Positions 488 to 10,166 of a stretch of 57,565 nt of DNA are shown one piece after another. Both the position numbers and the translations under genes were made by a program. Location of the stretch: the NCBI GenBank assembly GCA_049678885.1, contig JBAUEZ010000126.1:1-57565 (forward strand). The letters are read 5' to 3'. Numbering within the stretch: position 1 is the stretch's first letter; every line of letters begins with the position of its first letter. A model generated the notes under the pieces. The model was not told where the DNA came from, did not search any database, and saw only the letters and a list, made by a program, of their open reading frames with translations. Origin of the DNA: Candidatus Aquilonibacter sp. Lineage in GTDB: Bacteria > Vulcanimicrobiota > Vulcanimicrobiia > Vulcanimicrobiales > Vulcanimicrobiaceae.

Positions 488-3346
488 TTACCCGGATGCG
501 GCGGATGCTTCGCGCCTCCGGATCAAAAAGTCCTCGAACTCGGCAGCCGGCAACGGCGGTGCAACCGCATAGCCTTGAACGATGTCGCAGCTGTGCTCGG
601 CTAGGAACGCAAGCTGAGACATCGTCTCCACGCCCTCGGCAACGACCTTGAGGCCCAGGCTGTGCGCCATGCCGATGACCGTCTTGACAATCGTCTCGTC
701 GAAGACTTCGTGTCCGACGCCGATCACGAACGAGCCGTCGATCTTGAGCACGTCGAGTGCGAAGCGGCGAAGGTATGCAAGCGACGAGTACCCGGTTCCG
801 AAATCGTCGACGGCGATTCGGATGCCTGCGGCCTTGAGATCGCGCACGATGCCGACGGTCTGCGCGGCGTCGGACATCGCGACACTCTCGGTGATCTCAA
901 CTTCAAGAAAGGCGGGATCGAGTTTTGCGTTTTCGAGTGCTTGCAGCACCCGTGCGCGTAGATCGCGTTGATGGAATTGCCGCGCCGAAAGATTGACGGC
1001 GAGTCGCAGCGGTGCCAGCTCCCGGTGCCAACGCTCGACTTGTTTGGCTGCAGTTTCCAGGACCCAATCGCCGAGCGGCACGATCAAGCCCGATATCTCG
1101 GCACTCGGAATGAAGTGCGAGGGTTCGATCAATCCGCTCTTGGGATGATTCCAGCGCAGCAACGCTTCCACGCTGATGATATCGCCGGTGCGGACGTCGA
1201 GCTGCGGTTGGTAGTAGACGACGAATTGATCGTACTCGAGTGCGCGGCGCAGCAGTTTCTCCTGCGAGAGCCGCATGTGAATCGGTGCTTCGAGCGTCGG
1301 GTTGTAGAAGTAGTAGCCGTTGCGTCCGCGGTCTTTGGCGCGGTACATCGCAATGTCGGCGTTCTTGATCAGCGTCTGGTCGTCGCGGCCGTCTTCGGGA
1401 TAGACCGCGATACCGATACTCGCGGAAATGTACTGCTCGTACTCATCCAGCAGAAACGGCTCGCTGACCAGCGCCAAGATGCGTTCGCCGACGTCGCGGA
1501 CGTGCTCGGGGTCGCGGCAGTCGGTGATGAGCACGACGAATTCGTCGCCACCCATCCGCGCGATCGTTGCATCGTCGCCGAGTTCCTTGACCAGCCGTTG
1601 CGCGACCATCTGCAAGAGCCGGTCGCCGCGCGCGTGTCCGAGCGTGTCGTTGACGTCCTTGAAGCGATCGAGGTCGAGGAAGAGCACTGCGACGCGTCCC
1701 AAACGCGATTGAGCCACTTCGATCGCGTCGCGTAACTTCTCGGCCAGAAAGACGCGATTGGGCAGACCCGTGAGCGCATCGAAATAGGCCATTGCGCGTA
1801 AGCGCGCGCGTTGACGGCTGCGATCGATCGTGCCCGCAATCAACGTCGCAATGAGCCCCAAAAGATCGGCATCGGTGGGAGAGAACTCGCGCGTAGCGCC
1901 GGCCGGATCGGCAAAGACCAGCGCGCCGTAGGGCTCGCCGGCGACGTCGAGCCGCATCGCAACGCCGTTGCGGAACGGCACGGGGATCGCCGCACCGGGG
2001 AGCGACGCTACATTTTTCGCCATCGCGATGATCTCGTCGTCGGCAATGGTGTCGGCGCTCGGTTCGCGATAGATGGCTTCGATGCGCGGGGTGCCGTTGG
2101 TCATCTCGACGACCGCACCGAGCGTAAGATCGCATGCGTGACAGCCCATCTCGAGCGAGGCGCGCATGCGCACGTCGGGATAGTCGCCGCTCGCCGCAAT
2201 GAAGTACAAGTTGCGGATGCGTAGGTTCTGCATCTCGGCATGCCGCTCGGCCGTGCGCCGCTCAGTAATATCTTGCAAGACGCCGTACACTCCGACGCGC
2301 TCGCCGCCCTTGTACTGGGGGATGAACGTGATCTCGAGTTCGATCGGCAACCCGCCGGCATCGGGCGCTTCGAGGTTGAATGAGACCGGGTGTCCGCCAA
2401 GCGCGCGCGTGAACGCGGCCAAGGTGCGCTCGCGTTCGTGCTCGGGCACGACCTCGTGGAAGTGCGCGCCCAGCACACTTTCGCGCGCGAAACCGCTGAT
2501 GCGCATCGCCGCGTCGTTGACGTCGATGACCGTGCCGGCGCTGTTCATCGAGAGCACACCATCGGGATTGTGCTCGAAGAGCGAGCGTAGTGCGCTTTCC
2601 GCGGCGCGCTGTTCGGTTTCGTCGCGGCAGATCGCATAGGCGCCCTCGATCTTGCCGTCCCGATACATCGGAATCGACGTGACCGCGACATCGAGTGGTT
2701 CGCCTTGCAGCGTTCGCACGCGGGAGTGATAGAAGAGCGTCTCGCCCTGGAGCGTGCGATCGAGGTATTCTTGGTGCTTGGCTACATCTTGCGGATCGAG
2801 AAATGCCGTGTAGTGCAAGCCGATAATCGCCTCGGGTGGGGCGAGGCGCCGAACCGAGTCGTTGACGTCGATAACGTAGCCCTCGCGGTCCCAAACCGCG
2901 ACGATATCCGGATTGTACTCGAAGAGCGAGCGAAAGCGCTCCTCGCTCTCGGCGAGCGCGTTCTGCGCGGTGAGTGAATCGGTGATGTCTTCGGCGTAGG
3001 AGAGCGCATGATACATGGTGCTGTCTTGGACGGCGAACGTCGTCCAGCGGCAAATGCGGACCTCCCCGTTTGAGCGGTGGTTGCGATTGACGCTGACGAG
3101 GGTACGAATACCGTCGAGACCGTCGAGCCGCTGCTGCACCTCGCGCACGATCGACTTATCGTCTTCTGCGACAAAATCGAACTCGTCAATCGTTTTCCCG
3201 AGTACGTCGTCGGCGACGAAACCGAACATGTCGGCCGCGCGCGCCGACCAGTACGTTACGCGATAGCCGGCATCCCACGCGATGATCGCGAGCGGTGAGC
3301 GCGAGAGTAGTTCGTCGAGGAGACGGAGGTCGCGTTCACCGAGCAT
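488..3346 (-). CDS. Multi-PAS / GAF sensor diguanylate cyclase-phosphodiesterase (GGDEF-EAL)
   Basis: 952-aa ORF with an ATG start. Three PAS-like blocks and a GAF-like region are followed by an intact GGDEF motif (ARMGGDEFVVL) and an EAL domain (VEALLRW, DDFGTGYSSL, KIDGSFV). Confidence 0.9.
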   Translation of the reverse strand: MLGERDLRLLDELLSRSPLAIIAWDAGYRVTYWSARAADMFGFVADDVLGKTIDEFDFVAEDDKSIVREVQQRLDGLDGIRTLVSVNRNHRSNGEVRICRWTTFAVQDSTMYHALSYAEDITDSLTAQNALAESEERFRSLFEYNPDIVAVWDREGYVIDVNDSVRRLAPPEAIIGLHYTAFLDPQDVAKHQEYLDRTLQGETLFYHSRVRTLQGEPLDVAVTSIPMYRDGKIEGAYAICRDETEQRAAESALRSLFEHNPDGVLSMNSAGTVIDVNDAAMRISGFARESVLGAHFHEVVPEHERERTLAAFTRALGGHPVSFNLEAPDAGGLPIELEITFIPQYKGGERVGVYGVLQDITERRTAERHAEMQNLRIRNLYFIAASGDYPDVRMRASLEMGCHACDLTLGAVVEMTNGTPRIEAIYREPSADTIADDEIIAMAKNVASLPGAAIPVPFRNGVAMRLDVAGEPYGALVFADPAGATREFSPTDADLLGLIATLIAGTIDRSRQRARLRAMAYFDALTGLPNRVFLAEKLRDAIEVAQSRLGRVAVLFLDLDRFKDVNDTLGHARGDRLLQMVAQRLVKELGDDATIARMGGDEFVVLITDCRDPEHVRDVGERILALVSEPFLLDEYEQYISASIGIAVYPEDGRDDQTLIKNADIAMYRAKDRGRNGYYFYNPTLEAPIHMRLSQEKLLRRALEYDQFVVYYQPQLDVRTGDIISVEALLRWNHPKSGLIEPSHFIPSAEISGLIVPLGDWVLETAAKQVERWHRELAPLRLAVNLSARQFHQRDLRARVLQALENAKLDPAFLEVEITESVAMSDAAQTVGIVRDLKAAGIRIAVDDFGTGYSSLAYLRRFALDVLKIDGSFVIGVGHEVFDETIVKTVIGMAHSLGLKVVAEGVETMSQLAFLAEHSCDIVQGYAVAPPLPAAEFEDFLIRRREASAASG

Positions 3347-3360
3347 TTAGGGTCACTGAG

Positions 3361-4803
3361 TTAGTGCGCCAAGTACTCAAAGAGCCCGTGAACGCCGCCT
3401 TCGCGACCGAAGCCGGATTCGCGGTAGCCACCGAACGGCGAACTTGGATCGAACTGGTTGAACGTGTTGCACCACACGACGCCTGCACGCAGCCGCTGGG
3501 CGACCCACATGTTCTTGCTGCCCTTTTCCGTCCATATGCCGGCCGAGAGACCGTAGGGCGTGTTGTTGGCTTTCTCAACCGCTTCGTCGGGCGTGCGGAA
3601 GGTCAAGATTGAGAGCACCGGCCCGAAGATCTCTTCGCGCGCGATGCGGTGCGTGGGATGCACGTTCGAGAAGAACGACGCCGGGAAGAAGAAGCCGCGC
3701 GCCGGGAGATCGCATTGCTGTTGTACCAGCGTCGCGCCCTGCTCCACGCCGCTGCGCACCAGCTCCTCGATCTTTTCGAGTTGCGCGCGCGAATTGATTG
3801 CACCGATGTCGGTGTTCTTGTCGAGCGGGTCGCCGAGTCGCAGCGTTTGCAACCGCTCGGTGAGCCGCACAACGATCTCGTCGTGCACGCGCTCTTCAAC
3901 GAGGAGCCGCGAACCGGCACAACACACGTGCCCCTGATTGAAATAGATGCCGTTGACGATACCTTCGATCGCCTGATCCATCGGTGCGTCCGCGAAGACG
4001 ATGTGCGCGGCTTTGCCCCCAAGTTCGAGCGTGAGGCGCTTATCGGTTCCTCCAAGACGTCGCGCGATGATCTTGCCGACCTCGGTTGAGCCGGTAAACG
4101 CGATCTTATCGACGTCGGGATGTTCGACCAACGACGCGCCTGTCGCGCCGTCGCCGGTGATGACGTTAACGACGCCGGGCGGAAGATCGGCTTCTTCGAT
4201 GATCTGGGCCAGGGCGAGCGCCGTGAGCGGCGTGGTTTCAGCCGGCTTGAGGACGACCGTGTTCCCGCAGGCCAGCGCCGGCGCAATCTTCCACGCGGCC
4301 ATGAGCAACGGGAAGTTCCACGGTACGATCTGTCCGCAGACGCCGAGCGACTGCGGCTCGCGTCCCGCGCGCATCACCCATTCGAGTTTGTCGGCCCAGC
4401 CCGCATTATAGAAGAAGTGCGCCGCTGCGGCCGGGATGTCGAAATCGCGCGATTCTTTGATCGGCTTGCCGCCGTCCATCGTCTCGAGGACGGCGAGTTC
4501 ACGCGAGCGCTCGGTGATCGCGCGCGCAATACGGTAGATATATTTGGCGCGATCGGCCGGCTTGAGCTTGCGCCAGTACTTGTCGTAGGCTTTGCGCGCC
4601 GCCCGTACTGCGCGATCGACATCGGCTTCGTTAGCGTACGCGACGCGGGCGAGCGTCGTTTCGCTGGCTGGATTTACCGTCTCGAAGTACGCGCCGCTTT
4701 GGGGCGCCGACCAGCGGCCGTCGATAAACAGCCCGTAGACTTCGCGAATCTGAGGGCGCACGCTCTCCGGCGCCGGAGCGTAGTCGAAGATCGCCATCAT
4801 CAA
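3361..4803 (-). CDS. NAD(P)+-dependent aldehyde dehydrogenase family protein
   Basis: 480 aa with ALDH hallmarks: VPWNFPL, FTGSTEVGK, ELGGK, catalytic Cys context NQGHVCCAGSR, EEIFGPV. Its start overlaps the deoC stop by 4 nt. Confidence 0.9.
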   Translation of the reverse strand: MMMAIFDYAPAPESVRPQIREVYGLFIDGRWSAPQSGAYFETVNPASETTLARVAYANEADVDRAVRAARKAYDKYWRKLKPADRAKYIYRIARAITERSRELAVLETMDGGKPIKESRDFDIPAAAAHFFYNAGWADKLEWVMRAGREPQSLGVCGQIVPWNFPLLMAAWKIAPALACGNTVVLKPAETTPLTALALAQIIEEADLPPGVVNVITGDGATGASLVEHPDVDKIAFTGSTEVGKIIARRLGGTDKRLTLELGGKAAHIVFADAPMDQAIEGIVNGIYFNQGHVCCAGSRLLVEERVHDEIVVRLTERLQTLRLGDPLDKNTDIGAINSRAQLEKIEELVRSGVEQGATLVQQQCDLPARGFFFPASFFSNVHPTHRIAREEIFGPVLSILTFRTPDEAVEKANNTPYGLSAGIWTEKGSKNMWVAQRLRAGVVWCNTFNQFDPSSPFGGYRESGFGREGGVHGLFEYLAH

Positions 4804-5699
4804 TCCTTTGGAATATAATCGGTGCCCGCGTAGTGGCCCGTTTCTTCCTTTTCAAGCTGCATGAGCAGATCGTCGAGGAGTGAGCTCGCGCCTATGCGGA
4901 AGCGGTCGGGGTTCAGCCAAGTATCACCAAGCGTTTCCTTGACGATCACGAGATAGGTCAACGCCTGCTTGGTCGTCCGCACGCCGCCGGCGACCTTCAG
5001 TCCACGCCGTTCACCGGTACGCCGCGCGAAATCGCGAATCGCTTCGCACATTACGAGCGCGCTTGGAAACGTCGCATTGGTACCCACTTTGCCGGTCGAC
5101 GTCTTAATCACGTCCGCGCCGGCTTCGAGCGCGAGATCGCTCGCGCGCCGAATGTTGTCGTACGTTCCGAGTTCGCCGGTTTCGAGAATGACTTTGAGAT
5201 GCGCACTCGAGCCGCAAAGTTGTTTGACCGCGACGATCTCGCCGAAAACCAATCCTTCGTCGCCGGAGAGGAAGGCGCCGCGATCGATCACCATATCAAT
5301 CTCATCGGCACCTGAAGCTAAAGCTGCAGCCGTATCGGCAAGTTTGACCTCGAGACTAGAGAGGCCGCTCGGGAAGGCCGTGGCTACCGAGGCAACTTTG
5401 ACGGTCGTGCCGCGTAGCGCCTCTTTGGCGACCGGCACGAGGTTGGGGTAGACGCAGACCGCCGCGACGCTCGGCACGTTGGGCCAGCCGGGTCGCGGAT
5501 TAACCGCCTTCGCGCAGAGCGAGCGCACGCGCCCGTGTGAATCTTTGCCTTCGAGCGTCGTGAGATCGATGCACCGGATTGCGAGCGTTATGCCTTCGAG
5601 CTTGGCCGACGTCTTGATCGAACGCTTCGCGAGCGCAGCCGCGCGCGATTCGAGCATGACCGCATCGACGCTGACACTGGGGCCTACGAGCGTTGGCAT
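4800..5699 (-). CDS. deoC: Deoxyribose-phosphate aldolase (long DERA-type form)
   Basis: 299 aa. Motifs IDLTTLEG, VCVYP, DEIDMVI, Schiff-base Lys context HLKVILETGEL, and VIKTSTGK with KVAGGVRT are typical of DeoC/DERA class I aldolases. Confidence 0.8.
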   Translation of the reverse strand: MPTLVGPSVSVDAVMLESRAAALAKRSIKTSAKLEGITLAIRCIDLTTLEGKDSHGRVRSLCAKAVNPRPGWPNVPSVAAVCVYPNLVPVAKEALRGTTVKVASVATAFPSGLSSLEVKLADTAAALASGADEIDMVIDRGAFLSGDEGLVFGEIVAVKQLCGSSAHLKVILETGELGTYDNIRRASDLALEAGADVIKTSTGKVGTNATFPSALVMCEAIRDFARRTGERRGLKVAGGVRTTKQALTYLVIVKETLGDTWLNPDRFRIGASSLLDDLLMQLEKEETGHYAGTDYIPKD

Positions 5700-5706
5700 G
5701 CCGGGC

Positions 5707-6822
5707 CTAGAGCGTTCCGCGCTTTTCTTGTTCTTTTTCGATCGAAACGAAGAGCGCCTTGAAGTTGCCCTTTCCGAACGAGAGGCTGCCCTTACGTTGA
5801 ATGATTTCGAAAAACACGGTCGGGCGATCTTGCAGCGGCTTCGTGAAGATCTGCAGCATGTAGCCGAGATCGTCGCGATCGACCAGGATGCGCCGTTCGC
5901 GCAGCACGTCCAGTGCTTCGTCGATCTTGCCTACACGCTCGCCGAGCATCTCGTAGTAGCTATCCGGCGTGTCGAGAAATTCGACGCCGTTATAGCGTAG
6001 CGCATCGATCGTCGCGACGATGTCGTCGGTGCGGATCGCGATATGTTGCACGCCCGAGCCACGATAGAATTCGAGATACTCCTCGATCTGCGATTTCTTC
6101 TTGCCTTGCGCCGGCTCGTTGATCGGGAACTTCACTTGGTGCCGCGGGTCGCTCATCACTTTCGACTTGAGCGCCGTGTATTCGGTCGAGATGTCCTTGT
6201 CGTCGAACGACACGAGCTGTGAAAAGCCGAAGACGCGAGCGTAGAAGTCGCCCCATGCGTCCATCTCGCCCCAGCCGACGTTACCGACGCAATGGTCGAT
6301 GAACTGCAGCCCGGTCTTCTTGCTTCCCGGAAGGGTGCGATGGGCCTCGACGTACCCGGGCATGAACGGCCCGGTGTAGCCGCTGCGCTGGATGAACGTG
6401 TGCACGGTGTCGCCGTAGGCGGCGATCGTGGCGCGGACGATGCGGCCGCTGTCGTCCGAAAGTTCGACCGGAGCGCTCACCGATTTTGCGCCGCCGGCAA
6501 TAGCGCGTTCGTACGCAGCGCGCGCATCTTCGACGACGATTGCAATATCTTTGACGCCATCGCCGTGCAGCGACACGTGACGAGAGATTTCGCTTTGCGG
6601 ATCCAAACTTGCCGTGATGACGAAGCGCAGATTGTTCTGCTCGAGCACGTAGCTCGCGCGATCTTTTATTCCGGTCTCCGGTCCCGCGTACGCGACCTGA
6701 TCGAAACCGAATGCCGACATGTAAAAATGCGCAGCTTGTTTTGCGTTCCCGACGTAGAACTCGACGTAGTCCCAGTCGATGCGCGCCAGTGGATTGCTGC
6801 GCGCCTCGATGCTCGTACTCAT
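5707..6822 (-). CDS. hppD: 4-hydroxyphenylpyruvate dioxygenase
   Basis: 371 aa, two VOC/glyoxalase-like halves. FIDHCVGNV, GVQHIAIRTDDIV, LQIFTKP and FFEIIQRKG...FGKGNFKALF at the C-terminus are HppD signatures. Confidence 0.9.
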   Translation of the reverse strand: MSTSIEARSNPLARIDWDYVEFYVGNAKQAAHFYMSAFGFDQVAYAGPETGIKDRASYVLEQNNLRFVITASLDPQSEISRHVSLHGDGVKDIAIVVEDARAAYERAIAGGAKSVSAPVELSDDSGRIVRATIAAYGDTVHTFIQRSGYTGPFMPGYVEAHRTLPGSKKTGLQFIDHCVGNVGWGEMDAWGDFYARVFGFSQLVSFDDKDISTEYTALKSKVMSDPRHQVKFPINEPAQGKKKSQIEEYLEFYRGSGVQHIAIRTDDIVATIDALRYNGVEFLDTPDSYYEMLGERVGKIDEALDVLRERRILVDRDDLGYMLQIFTKPLQDRPTVFFEIIQRKGSLSFGKGNFKALFVSIEKEQEKRGTL

Positions 6823-6874
6823 GCTGGAGGGCTTGGCGAAGCCTCGGGAGGGGCCCTGTCGAACAACGGTAATC

Positions 6875-7696
6875 GTGACGACTCTTGCCCCAACCGGCGC
6901 CGTGCGCGCCGCCCTCGAGTGCTTGATCGACTATGCTGGTCTGTTTCCGCCTGCAAATCTGCCGATCGGTGCCGCGCTTACTGAATACGAGCAGGCACGG
7001 GAAGGCGTCGCCTCCTGGATGCTCTCGCGCTTTATCGTGAAAGCCGCCGACCTCGATGCGCTGCGTGCACGCGCTGCAGGAAGCAAAAGCATCGAGCTGA
7101 CGGTTATTGCACCGCCCGCGATGTTCGAAGCGGTAGCTGCTGCGCGCCGCGACGGTTGGGCGACGATCGCGAGTCTCGAGGTTCCGCTTGGTGACGGCGC
7201 GATCGACGCGTGCGCGCGGTCGGCGCGCGCGACGCAGGTCGATGACCTGCCGACGTACGTCGAACTCTCGCGAGGCCGCTTAGCGATGGACGAACTCGCG
7301 CAGCGGGGCCTCGGTGCGAAACTGCGCTGTGGCGGCGTGGAAGCGTCGGCATATCCCTCGGTGCACGAGGTCGCCACCTTTATCGCCGCCGCGGTCGACG
7401 CCGGCGTGCCATTCAAGGCGACCGCAGGCCTCCACCATCCTGTCCGCCATTTCAATGAAGGCGCGGGTGTAGCAATGCATGGCTTCCTTAATGTGTTGCT
7501 GGCGGCGGCCCGTGCGGGCGACGTCAGCCAAGACGAGCTGGATGCCACGATCGCCGAGCAAGATCCGGCTGCGCTGCCCCTGCGCGACGAGGCGCTGCTA
7601 CGCCGCGGCCGGGAGCGCTTCGTCTCCTACGGAAGCTGCAGCTTCGACGAACCGGTTGCCGATCTTCGCGCGCTACACGTGCTTCCCGCGGAATAG
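6875..7696 (+). CDS. Conserved-looking hypothetical protein, no family recognised; 5 nt upstream of fahA
   Basis: The track ORF starts at 6779, which would overlap the divergent hppD start (6822), so I prefer the in-frame GTG at 6875; the start is uncertain. Coding-like composition. His-rich motifs: KLRCGG, FKATAGLHHPVRH, HGFLN, YGSCSFDEP. Confidence 0.55.
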   Translation: MTTLAPTGAVRAALECLIDYAGLFPPANLPIGAALTEYEQAREGVASWMLSRFIVKAADLDALRARAAGSKSIELTVIAPPAMFEAVAAARRDGWATIASLEVPLGDGAIDACARSARATQVDDLPTYVELSRGRLAMDELAQRGLGAKLRCGGVEASAYPSVHEVATFIAAAVDAGVPFKATAGLHHPVRHFNEGAGVAMHGFLNVLLAAARAGDVSQDELDATIAEQDPAALPLRDEALLRRGRERFVSYGSCSFDEPVADLRALHVLPAE

Positions 7697-7701
7697 CTCC
7701 G

Positions 7702-9000
7702 ATGCCGCACATCGACTCGTGGGTTCCGGTTCCAGCCGGCAGTGACTTCACGATCTACAATCTGCCCTACGGCGCGTTCGTGCGTGGCGGACGAACGCAT
7801 CTCGGCGTGGCGATCGGCACGCGCATCCTTGACCTGTATGCGCTCGCCGATGCCGGGTTGCTCGACAACGCAAAGCTCGACAATGCAAAGCTCGACAATG
7901 TAAGCCCGCGCGAGCTGCTTCAAGCAGAATCGCTCAACCCGTTCCTCGCCGCAGGTCCGCAACTCTGGAAGAAGGTGCGGCTGCACATCGCCGCGCTGCT
8001 GCGCAGTGACGATCGCGGCGATCCGAGCTTGCGCGAGCGTAGCAACGACGCGTTCTTCGTCGAACAAGCGGACGCAACAATGGTCGTCCCGATGGAAATC
8101 GGCGATTACGTTGATTTCTATTCCTCGCTCGAACACGCAACCAATTTAGGGAAGATCCTACGTCCGAATTCCGAACCGCTGCTCCCAAATTGGCGGCACA
8201 TGCCGATCGCCTATCATGGGCGCGCGAGCACGATCGTTATCGACGGCACCCCGATCGTACGGCCAAGCGGCCAACGAAAGCCCGCAGGTACGGACGCACC
8301 GGTTTTCGGTCCGACGCAGCGGCTCGATATCGAGCTCGAGGTCGGTTTTGTTACCGGGCCAGGCAATCTGCTCGGTCAGCCGATCCGCGCTGCCGCCGCC
8401 CGCGAACACATCTTCGGCATGGTCCTCGTCAACGACTGGAGCGCACGCGACATTCAAGCGTGGGAATATCAGCCGCTCGGGCCATTCCTGGGCAAATCAT
8501 TTGCGACCACGATCTCACCTTGGATCGTGACCATGGACGCGCTCGAGCCATTTCGCATCGGCGGTCCGAAACAAGACCCGCAACCGCTGCCGTACCTGCA
8601 GACGAGCGACCGCGCTGCGTACGACATCAAACTCGAAGTCGAGCTCTCGTCGGAGGCAATGCGGAAGTCGGGTGTCGCGCCGGTGACGGTCTCGCGCACG
8701 AACTTCAAAGAACTCTATTGGAACATGGCGCAGCAGCTCGCCCATGTAACCGTAAACGGCACACAGATTCGTCCCGGCGATCTCTACGCGTCAGGGACGA
8801 TTAGCGGCAGCGCGCCTGACTCGCGCGGCAGCTTTATCGAACTCACGTGGAATGCAACCCAGCCGATCAGCCTGCCGAGCGGCGAGGTGCGCGGTTTTCT
8901 TCAGGACGGAGATGAGGTAGCGTTACGCGGGTGGTGCGAGCAGGGTGACTTTCGCATCGGCTTGGGCAGCGCTCGCGGAAGGATCGTCGCAGCTCGTTAG
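7702..9000 (+). CDS. fahA: Fumarylacetoacetase (fumarylacetoacetate hydrolase)
   Basis: 432 aa. N-terminal SWVPV..SDFTIYNLPYGAF, then DYVDFYSS, HMPIAYHGRASTIV, LDIELEVG, FGMVLVNDWSARDIQ.WEY.PLGPF.GK match eukaryote-type FAH. Confidence 0.9.
   Translation: MPHIDSWVPVPAGSDFTIYNLPYGAFVRGGRTHLGVAIGTRILDLYALADAGLLDNAKLDNAKLDNVSPRELLQAESLNPFLAAGPQLWKKVRLHIAALLRSDDRGDPSLRERSNDAFFVEQADATMVVPMEIGDYVDFYSSLEHATNLGKILRPNSEPLLPNWRHMPIAYHGRASTIVIDGTPIVRPSGQRKPAGTDAPVFGPTQRLDIELEVGFVTGPGNLLGQPIRAAAAREHIFGMVLVNDWSARDIQAWEYQPLGPFLGKSFATTISPWIVTMDALEPFRIGGPKQDPQPLPYLQTSDRAAYDIKLEVELSSEAMRKSGVAPVTVSRTNFKELYWNMAQQLAHVTVNGTQIRPGDLYASGTISGSAPDSRGSFIELTWNATQPISLPSGEVRGFLQDGDEVALRGWCEQGDFRIGLGSARGRIVAAR
7861..7905 (+). 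repeat. 3 x 15-bp in-frame tandem repeat inside fahA (LDNAK-LDNAK-LDNVS)
   Basis: ctcgacaacgcaaag / ctcgacaatgcaaag / ctcgacaatgtaagc, read directly. Confidence 0.9.
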
Positions 9001-10166
9001 CTCACCGGACTCGGCGATTCGAGCCACGAGCGGTAATATTGCTCGTCCTCCACCTCAAGCGCCGATGGTGCAAGCCGTAGCGGTTTGAACGTGTCGACCA
9101 TTACCGCGATCTCGTCGGTCGACTTCGCGCCAAGGCTCGCCTCGACGGCGCCGGGTTGCGGTCCATGCGGCGCGCCCGCAGCGTGCAACGTGACGGAGCC
9201 CTCTTCGACGCCGCGGCGGCTCATGAAGTTGCCGCTGACGTAGAAGATGACTTCGTCGCAATCGACGCTCGAATGATTGTAAGGCACGGGAATAGCCAGC
9301 GGGTGGTAGTCGAAGAGCCGCGGCACGAACGCGCAGAACGCCGCACCCGGCGCTTCGAAAGTCGCGTGTGCCGGCGGCGGCTGATGCAGCTTACCGGTAA
9401 TCGGCGCGAACTCTTCGAGATTGAATGCATAAGGATAGCAGTAGCCGTCCCAGCCGACGACGTCGCACGGGTGGTTCTGCACGATGTAGATCGCGGAGCG
9501 ACCCGCGTTGCTGACGCGGATCTCATACTCGCCGCGCGCATTGATCGGCGCTTTGAGCACGGGCGCGCGGAAGTCGCGCTCGTAGTACGGCGCATGTTCC
9601 TCGAGCTGCCCGAACTCGTTGCGGTAGCGGCGGGGAATCGTCACCATCCCGCGCGACTCGTGCACCAGCATCCGCGTCGGTGAAGCCGGTAATACGCGAT
9701 ATGTCGTGCCGGTTGGAAGGATCACGTAGTCGTGCGCGCGGTATGCGAGCTCGCCGAAAGGCGTTTCGATGACACCCGCGCCATCATGGATGAAAAGCAA
9801 CTCGTCGCCGCCGGTATTCCGGTACCAATACTCCATCGCGCGATCCGCCTGCGCAATCGAAACCGCGAGGTCTTCGTTGCCTAGGAGCGTGCGACGGGAA
9901 TCGATCGCGTCACCACCGGTGTGGATGCGCGCGGTTTTGAAGTGCCGATTGCGAAGCGGTTCGTTCGGCACGAATACTGCTGCCGGACGGTCCCATGCTC
10001 GCACTTCGAGCGTAGCCGTCGGTGGACGCTCATGATAGAGCAAGGAGTAGATGCTCTCGAAGCCTTTGGTCGAGAAGAGCTCTTCGGCGTAGAGCCCGCC
10101 ATCGGGCCGGCGAAATTGAATGTGTCGCTTGTGCGGCAGTGAACCGGCGCGAACGTACGAGGGCAT
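8997..10166 (-). CDS. hmgA: Homogentisate 1,2-dioxygenase (short bacterial type)
   Basis: 389 aa. Motifs LPHKRHIQFR, YAEELFSTKGF, LYH, cupin core with HESRG, YPYAFNL, HPLAIPVPYNHSSVDCDEVIFYV. Its stop overlaps the fahA stop (shared TTAG at 8997-9000). Confidence 0.85.
   Translation of the reverse strand: MPSYVRAGSLPHKRHIQFRRPDGGLYAEELFSTKGFESIYSLLYHERPPTATLEVRAWDRPAAVFVPNEPLRNRHFKTARIHTGGDAIDSRRTLLGNEDLAVSIAQADRAMEYWYRNTGGDELLFIHDGAGVIETPFGELAYRAHDYVILPTGTTYRVLPASPTRMLVHESRGMVTIPRRYRNEFGQLEEHAPYYERDFRAPVLKAPINARGEYEIRVSNAGRSAIYIVQNHPCDVVGWDGYCYPYAFNLEEFAPITGKLHQPPPAHATFEAPGAAFCAFVPRLFDYHPLAIPVPYNHSSVDCDEVIFYVSGNFMSRRGVEEGSVTLHAAGAPHGPQPGAVEASLGAKSTDEIAVMVDTFKPLRLAPSALEVEDEQYYRSWLESPSPVS

Follow-up and report, generated by a model that had tools for sequence, protein, structure and literature searches.

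A fahA-linked alpha/beta-barrel protein family as a candidate maleylacetoacetate isomerase of the homogentisate pathway

The locus and its genes

The homogentisate pathway is textbook knowledge. The only isomerase known for it is a glutathione transferase (GST), whose gene is absent from many bacteria that degrade tyrosine by this route. This work deals with a contig of Candidatus Aquilonibacter sp. (JBAUEZ010000126.1, assembly GCA_049678885.1), whose whole length of 57,565 nt is hereafter called the window, and in particular with one of its open reading frames (ORFs), here named gene X, which precedes the fumarylacetoacetase gene fahA and whose product, predicted to be a triosephosphate isomerase (TIM) barrel, is proposed as a candidate for the lacking isomerase. 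The genes surrounding it are hppD and hmgA (Table 1). A first-pass annotation, made from the sequence without database searches, had described an ORF of about 273 aa ending 5 nt before fahA and divergent from hppD, in a cluster that encodes HppD, HmgA and FahA; its coordinates and translation agree with the sequence, and the Pfam and NCBIfam matches agree with the identity of the three enzymes. The TAG codon of X ends at 7696 and the ATG of fahA lies at 7702 on the same strand, which gives the spacer of 5 nt.

Table 1. Positions of the genes and sequence features discussed, numbered from the first letter of the window
Feature	Position	Strand	Remarks
Gene X, candidate maleylacetoacetate isomerase of a TIM-barrel family without annotation	6875..7696	+	273 aa; GTG start; stop-free frame
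fahA, fumarylacetoacetase	7702..9000	+	TIGR01266, 516.5 bits (cut-off 375)
hppD, 4-hydroxyphenylpyruvate dioxygenase	5707..6822	-	TIGR01263, 463.9 bits; divergent from X
hmgA, homogentisate 1,2-dioxygenase, short divergent form	8997..10166	-	389 aa; HgmA_N/HgmA_C; convergent with fahA
hppD/X divergent intergenic region	6823..6874		52 nt; presumed shared promoter region, from sequence only
KLRCGG, residues 149-154, sixth barrel strand	7319..7336	+	K149, R151, G153, G154
FKATAGLHHPVRH, residues 180-192, seventh barrel strand plus following loop	7412..7450	+	K181, T183, G185, H187, R191
HGFLN, residues 202-206	7478..7492	+	H202, F204, N206
YGSCSFDEP, residues 252-260, end of eighth barrel strand	7628..7654	+	Cys255 codon at 7637-7639

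The scores of fahA and hppD lie far over the cut-offs of the respective NCBIfam equivalogs, while hmgA is recognised by the Pfam HgmA domains only, its product reaching 62 bits against an NCBIfam equivalog cut-off of 510; the Rhodococcus ortholog of this short form bears in RefSeq merely the name “cupin domain-containing protein”. The convergent arrangement of hmgA and fahA recurs in relatives. Regarding the start of X, the public gene call (P0005) begins 9 codons later, at the GTG at 6902 (264 aa), but the earlier N-terminus is kept in relatives (for example, as MTTSATAPAVRAAF in P0141), and position 6875 is favoured for that reason and retained here with some uncertainty. An ATG at 6779 was also considered as the start and rejected, the resulting ORF overlapping hppD by 44 nt.

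A protein family without annotation

The product of X has no Pfam and no NCBIfam match at E<=1, which bears out its initial labelling as a protein of unknown family, and searches of the PDB sequences with either the single sequence or a profile returned chance matches only and no relative. This does not make it a rare protein: phmmer, run exhaustively against 1.84 billion cluster representatives, gave 4362 homologs at E<=0.001 (3169 of them at E<=1e-10), and a word-indexed search retrieved more than 6600. Every homolog that bears a name, those in RefSeq included, is called “hypothetical protein”, and X is thus a member of a protein family that is new as such.

The conservation within this family was evaluated over 265 homologs. 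Several residues are invariant (E130, R151, G153, G154, P161, K181, T183, G185, H187, F204 and N206), and K149 (99.6%), E102, H202 (99%) and C255 are conserved in at least 99% of the sequences, followed by R191 (98%); within the fahA-linked clade, Cys255 is itself invariant. The family signature can be written as DYAGLFPP, KLRCGG, KATAGLHHP-R, HGFLN and YGSCSF-EP, all of which occur in the window protein. The four motifs that had been pointed out from the single sequence as possibly forming a metal or catalytic site (KLRCGG, FKATAGLHHPVRH, HGFLN and YGSCSFDEP) are all present in X and fall on invariant or near-invariant columns of the alignment.

Linkage to fahA

The genomic context of the family was studied in 80 loci with X relatives, taken from contigs of one genome per species, in which FahA, HppD and HmgA were located by tblastn. 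These loci cover more than 10 phyla, with representatives from Eremiobacterota, Actinomycetota (Streptomyces, Rhodococcus), Acidobacteriota, Planctomycetota, Gemmatimonadota, Chloroflexota, Cyanobacteria, Verrucomicrobiota, Rhodothermales, Ignavibacteria and Chlorobiota, among others. In 62 of the 80, fahA starts within tens of bases 3' of X on the same strand, whereas hppD or hmgA is found at 10 kb or less from X in only about 30. The linkage between X and fahA is kept despite the rearrangement of all other neighbours. The same was found when starting from genomes instead of loci, since X lies within approximately 3 kb of fahA in 32 of the 37 carriers of the first three phylum samples described below and in 31 of the 39 carriers in Bacteroidota. 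Where an X-fahA pair has no hmgA nearby, this gene is encoded elsewhere in seven of ten such genomes.

Several of the 18 loci without an adjacent fahA end at a contig edge, and in ten genomes of this kind fahA is present elsewhere in six, as a frameshifted copy in one, and absent from three. The X copies that are located away from fahA adjoin unrelated genes (e.g., for a histidine kinase, an esterase, a MatE transporter or PD40-repeat proteins), and none of these neighbours suggests an alternative function. Two of these loci, both from Obscuribacterales, have X followed by a histidine kinase gene instead of fahA (L040:2321-4223 (+) and L050:9986-11889 (+)), and neither genome yielded a fahA with TIGR01266.

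On a Priestia megaterium plasmid (RefSeq) the order is hppD-X-fahA-hisC-hmgA-permease, on pNit from Rhodococcus rhodochrous (RefSeq) it is hmgA-X-fahA, and on a Streptomyces plasmid (RefSeq) it is hmgA-X-fahA followed by the genes of coenzyme A transferase A/B. In the three of them, the isomerase is the only standard step of the pathway that has no annotated gene. The corresponding operon of Sphingobium (RefSeq), phhA-hppD-hmgA-fahA-maiA, does include maiA.

Furthermore, X and FahA are found as one polypeptide. Full-length X-FahA fusions are represented by P0272, P0273, P0275, P0276 and P0279, which come from two Sphaerisporangium species and from metagenomes. In P0273 (783 aa; L091:5001-7352 (+), and also L092 and L093), X forms the N-terminal and FahA the C-terminal part, and the identical open frame is present on contigs of three metagenome samples. 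An HmgA-X fusion (P0277) was left out of the count, as both ends of HmgA are missing from it and a gene-free stretch of 1.4 kb follows, so it might be an assembly artefact.

Co-occurrence with fahA and relation to maiA

The first-pass annotation had noticed that no MaiA was encoded in the window and had proposed to look for it elsewhere in the genome. The search was extended to the whole assembly (3.15 Mb, 92.7% complete), where TIGR01262 (cut-off 171 bits) finds nothing. No MDMPI_N domain (PF11716) and no full-length GST were found in it either; the only matches to GST_N_3 are two glutaredoxin-like ORFs of about 84 aa with a CPYC motif. Likewise, none of 50 X-bearing genomes contains a maiA over the TIGR01262 cut-off.

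To these data can be added samples of whole phyla. The gene fahA was found in 13 of 151 genomes from the phylum of a Streptomyces genome, in 12 of 201 from that of the L081 genome and in 22 of 151 from that of a Terracidiphilus genome; one of the 13 (G170, unpublished) was left out of all later searches, which leaves 46 fahA-positive genomes. X is encoded in 37 of them and maiA in two, both without X, while seven carry neither and none carries both. For Acidobacteriota (151 genomes), X and fahA occur together in 19, X alone in one, fahA alone in three and neither in 128 (Fisher p = 5e-20, a value inflated by shared ancestry). The Cyanobacteria sample was uninformative, fahA being present in the seed genome only. 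A further sample comprised 251 Bacteroidota genomes, with fahA in 95 of them, and the search for X and maiA was made in the first 80 of these. A match to the X family was obtained in 39, in 31 of which it is linked to fahA, and maiA was found in none of the 80. The co-occurrence check that the first-pass annotation had proposed thus comes out in its favour, homologs of the ORF being found with fahA, and in physical linkage to it, in many phyla.

Plasmids and chromids give a picture of the distribution of both types of gene. There, fahA was found in 252 records, mostly from Pseudomonadota, and X in 23, all from Streptomyces, Priestia, Rhodococcus, Pseudonocardia, Nonomuraea or Kovacikia. MaiA-like genes, searched for by tblastn, appear in 193 records, the genera named and the matches listed being all from Pseudomonadota.

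Fold and conserved residues

The AlphaFold2 model of X, built with a 48-sequence alignment, is of high confidence (mean predicted local distance difference test score 95.6, predicted template modelling score 0.92) and shows an alpha/beta (TIM) barrel, in which helices alternate with eight main beta strands. Its top-ranked structural neighbours are six structures of deoxyribose-phosphate aldolase (DERA), with Z scores of 14.3-12.3 and a root mean square deviation of 3.3-3.8 A over approximately 190-218 residues at 11-17% identity, and the best Foldseek match is 1n7k (E 1.7e-4). In the ESM Atlas, X falls again among TIM barrels, and the nearest clusters are all bacterial. The predicted structure, which the first-pass annotation had left to be checked, thus matches only a generic TIM barrel of the aldolase type and not an unrelated known function.

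DERA, a class I aldolase (PF01791), is the best structural match, but X has no match to the Pfam DeoC family, and an hhalign comparison between the X profile (A1) and the DeoC encoded in the window itself gave a probability of 0.2%, i.e., no relationship; therefore, the likeness between X and DERA is limited to the fold. TIM barrels have their active sites at the C-terminal strand ends, and according to the secondary structure of the model the invariant or nearly invariant polar residues D19, E102, E130, K149/R151, K181/T183 and S254/C255 are on or just after strands 1, 4, 5, 6, 7 and 8, respectively (by DSSP, E102 is on the strand 97-106, K149 on 147-151 and K181 on 180-183). In DERA, strands 4, 6 and 7 carry D102, K167 and K201, to which the acid on strand 4 and the lysines on strands 6 and 7 of X may correspond, judging by strand order. 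The invariant Cys, Arg and His of X are not known to have counterparts in DERA. The prediction of a complex between X and FahA (alignments A1 and A2) had a score of 0.00, which speaks neither for nor against an interaction.

Proposed function and mechanism

Isomerisation of maleylacetoacetate is the function best supported by these observations, because X is enzyme-like, genetically tied to FahA, located between hmgA and fahA in several lineages, fused to FahA in others and never seen with maiA. We thus consider it reasonably probable, judging from sequence and genome context, that X is the cis-trans isomerase of the homogentisate pathway, working without a cofactor as a non-homologous replacement for MaiA/HmgC/GSTZ1. 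The same idea had been put forward in the first-pass annotation as a non-orthologous replacement, and it gains support from the absence of maiA from the whole genome, the linkage to fahA, the slot occupied in the operons and the fusions.

The cis-trans isomerisation of an enedioate needs a nucleophile that adds to the double bond, a role played in the known enzymes by glutathione or another thiol. In X, Cys255 is proposed as this nucleophile, because it is invariant at the catalytic face and lost in the paralogs encoded away from fahA. In the mechanism that we suggest, the Cys255 thiolate would attack maleylacetoacetate at its C2=C3 double bond, with K149, R151, K181 and H187 binding both carboxylates and polarising the 4-oxo group; K149 might even form an iminium, like the Schiff-base lysine on the equivalent strand of DERA. 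The C2-C3 bond would then rotate and the thiol leave, delivering fumarylacetoacetate to FahA, and no diffusible thiol would be required. Actinomycetota, Bacillota and Cyanobacteria use different low-molecular-weight thiols, and the spread of the X family over such lineages argues for, without proving, independence from a thiol cofactor. The reaction of X is something that we infer, and the Cys255 mechanism doubly so. It is possible, though tentative, that X represents a new class of cis-trans isomerases, in which a TIM barrel would combine its own cysteine with an aldolase-like pair of lysines and dispense with the thiol cofactor.

Compared with the known systems, the zeta-class GST known as MaiA, HmgC or GSTZ1 (EC 5.2.1.2, TIGR01262) would share with X the reaction and the position in the pathway, and the genes of both are clustered with hmgA and fahA, but never in one genome here. 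They have no relationship in sequence or fold: GSTs combine a thioredoxin-like fold with a helical domain, whereas the model of X is an eight-stranded alpha/beta barrel without any GST domain. Moreover, the nucleophile of MaiA is glutathione, while X would use its own Cys255. The maleylpyruvate isomerases of the DinB/MDMPI type (the mycothiol-dependent PF11716 and its bacillithiol- and cysteine-dependent relatives) are non-GST enzymes from Gram-positive bacteria that perform the same type of isomerisation. Their substrate is the maleylpyruvate of the gentisate pathway, and they depend on a thiol cofactor; unlike X, they fold as the four-helix DinB bundle, and X has no sequence match to PF11716 or DinB. 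A mechanistic analogue of the proposed X reaction is maleate cis-trans isomerase, from the Asp/Glu racemase superfamily, a cofactor-free enzyme whose own cysteine adds to the double bond. This enzyme isomerises maleate, has an unrelated fold and does not match X in sequence.

Should X represent such a new class, it would be the homogentisate-pathway isomerase of many phyla other than Pseudomonadota and of none of the eukaryotes. Glutathione-independent maleylacetoacetate and maleylpyruvate isomerase activities were reportedly described in Gram-positive bacteria in 1985, and X would then be the gene for the former activity, which is not known to have been assigned to one. An isomerase role of the family would also let pathway-annotation tools fill, in more than 10 phyla, a missing step of tyrosine and phenylalanine catabolism. 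A function would thereby be given to a “hypothetical protein” family that has thousands of cluster representatives but no relatives in Pfam, NCBIfam or the PDB, and, if the mechanism were to hold as well, the TIM barrel would have a new catalytic use as a cofactor-free cis-trans isomerase. Our literature search found no paper that names a non-GST maleylacetoacetate isomerase or assigns a function to the X family, and in Bacillus thuringiensis the isomerase gene was not identifiable according to a paper from 2018 (PMC6193087).

Points against the proposal and alternative explanations

There are several observations that weigh against the assignment of X as the isomerase. One is the number of fahA-positive genomes with no candidate for this step: seven of the 46 genomes of the first three samples have neither X nor maiA and, in Bacteroidota, 41 of the 80 have no X match and seven more have only a paralog devoid of the cysteine, so that 41-48 of them are without a candidate isomerase. 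Either there is no dedicated enzyme in such genomes or further solutions exist, and the argument that X fills a gap is weakened by them. Conversely, five genomes (G019, G028, G047, G048 and G463) bear X without fahA. The complementarity between X and maiA has p = 0.035 in the first 46 genomes and 0.16 when pooled, and it depends on two maiA-positive genomes, in a sampling in which Pseudomonadota were not systematically included. As for the protein itself, its nearest fold is that of an aldolase and not of an isomerase, and Cys255 is placed close to the lysines solely on the grounds of strand positions in the model.

The first alternative is that X does isomerise maleylacetoacetate, but with a diffusible thiol (mycothiol, bacillithiol, cysteine, glutathione or ergothioneine), Cys255 having a structural or binding role. 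To our knowledge, a thiol cofactor is used by all isomerases so far characterised that act on ring-fission products of the maleyl type, which favours this alternative, as does an EgtB-like gene encoded beside hppD in related Eremiobacterota loci. Nevertheless, the family is present in Streptomyces, Rhodococcus, Priestia and cyanobacteria, whose thiols differ, which makes a single cofactor pocket less likely, and it is precisely the paralogs unlinked to fahA that no longer have the invariant cysteine of the catalytic face; we therefore regard a thiol-dependent X as unlikely.

Those paralogs are seven weak X matches from Bacteroidota (L125-L131, e.g., L126:4004-4978 (+)), unlinked to fahA and located among housekeeping genes, such as those for HU, HemN-like proteins and hexapeptide transferases. 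They have lost C255, R151, H187 and the GSC motif, and they keep K149, K181, E102 and mostly E130, so this clade probably has a different function.

A comparably low probability is given to X being another enzyme that works with FahA, such as a keto-enol tautomerase or a remover of a reactive side product, the cis-trans step being spontaneous, thiol-assisted or carried out by another protein. The linkage of X is indeed tight to fahA specifically, the many fahA genomes without X and maiA suggest that a dedicated isomerase may be dispensable, and an aldolase-type fold with conserved lysines on strands 6 and 7 would suit carbonyl or enol chemistry. However, the organisms with maiA need no extra enzyme in the operon, as seen in Sphingobium, X and maiA were never found together, and the isomerase is the sole standard step left unannotated in the three Gram-positive operons.

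Far less probable is an accessory role of X for HppD or HmgA, analogous to that of the fungal HmgX, a protein of 256 aa with no known domain whose gene is divergent from hppD and which is needed for the formation of homogentisate (PMC3203155). Both the size of the protein and the gene arrangement resemble those of X, which in the window is separated from the divergent hppD by a short common spacer. HmgX, nonetheless, functions at the step of HppD, and the fungal clusters with hmgX also carry maiA (PMC4374905), whereas X tracks fahA and was never found with maiA; the adjacency of fahA in 62 of 80 loci, against 30 with hppD at 10 kb or less, the X-FahA fusions and the exclusively bacterial character of the nearest ESM Atlas clusters speak against this reading too. 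Finally, a function unrelated to tyrosine breakdown, with the position beside fahA being historical, would agree with the members unlinked to fahA and the few in genomes without it, but is scarcely credible in view of a linkage that persists across more than 10 phyla despite rearranged neighbours, of the fusions, and of the near-perfect co-occurrence in Acidobacteriota.

Other occupants of the fahA-adjacent position

If X is the isomerase, the question arises of what is encoded beside fahA in the genomes that have neither X nor maiA. In one of them, from Acidobacteriota (G452), a gene of 168 aa with DinB_2/DinB/MST-like domains is located directly 3' of fahA (L100:6278-6784 (+)), and this protein, from the superfamily that includes the thiol-dependent maleylpyruvate isomerases, is a possible thiol-dependent isomerase; the fahA-adjacent slot might therefore be used by different types of isomerase. 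Three Bacteroidota have instead, shortly 3' of fahA and in clusters composed of hmgA, hppD and fahA, a gene whose product of about 270-310 aa contains a Flavin_Reduct domain (L119:3099-3998 (-), L117:2093-3013 (-) and L108:2554-3375 (-)), and the comparison of the X profile A1 with it revealed no relationship. In the remaining genomes without X and maiA, nothing consistent emerged as a third solution beside fahA.

Further features of the region

The hppD gene of the window heads a string of genes on the minus strand (488-6822), in which it is followed on its 3' side by a DeoC-type aldolase (4800-5699), an aldehyde dehydrogenase (3361-4803) and a PAS/GGDEF/EAL protein of 952 aa (488-3346 (-)); the whole string recurs in the locus of a related genome (L004). 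Near hppD, the Eremiobacterota relatives encode the EgtB-like protein mentioned above, which has DinB_2 and FGE-sulfatase domains (L004:269-1531 (-) and L005:5548-6807 (-)), and its presence by the tyrosine cluster hints at ergothioneine synthesis nearby. In the N-terminal domain of the window FahA, residues 54-66 (7861-7899 (+)) form a tandem peptide repeat, DNAKL DNAKL DN.

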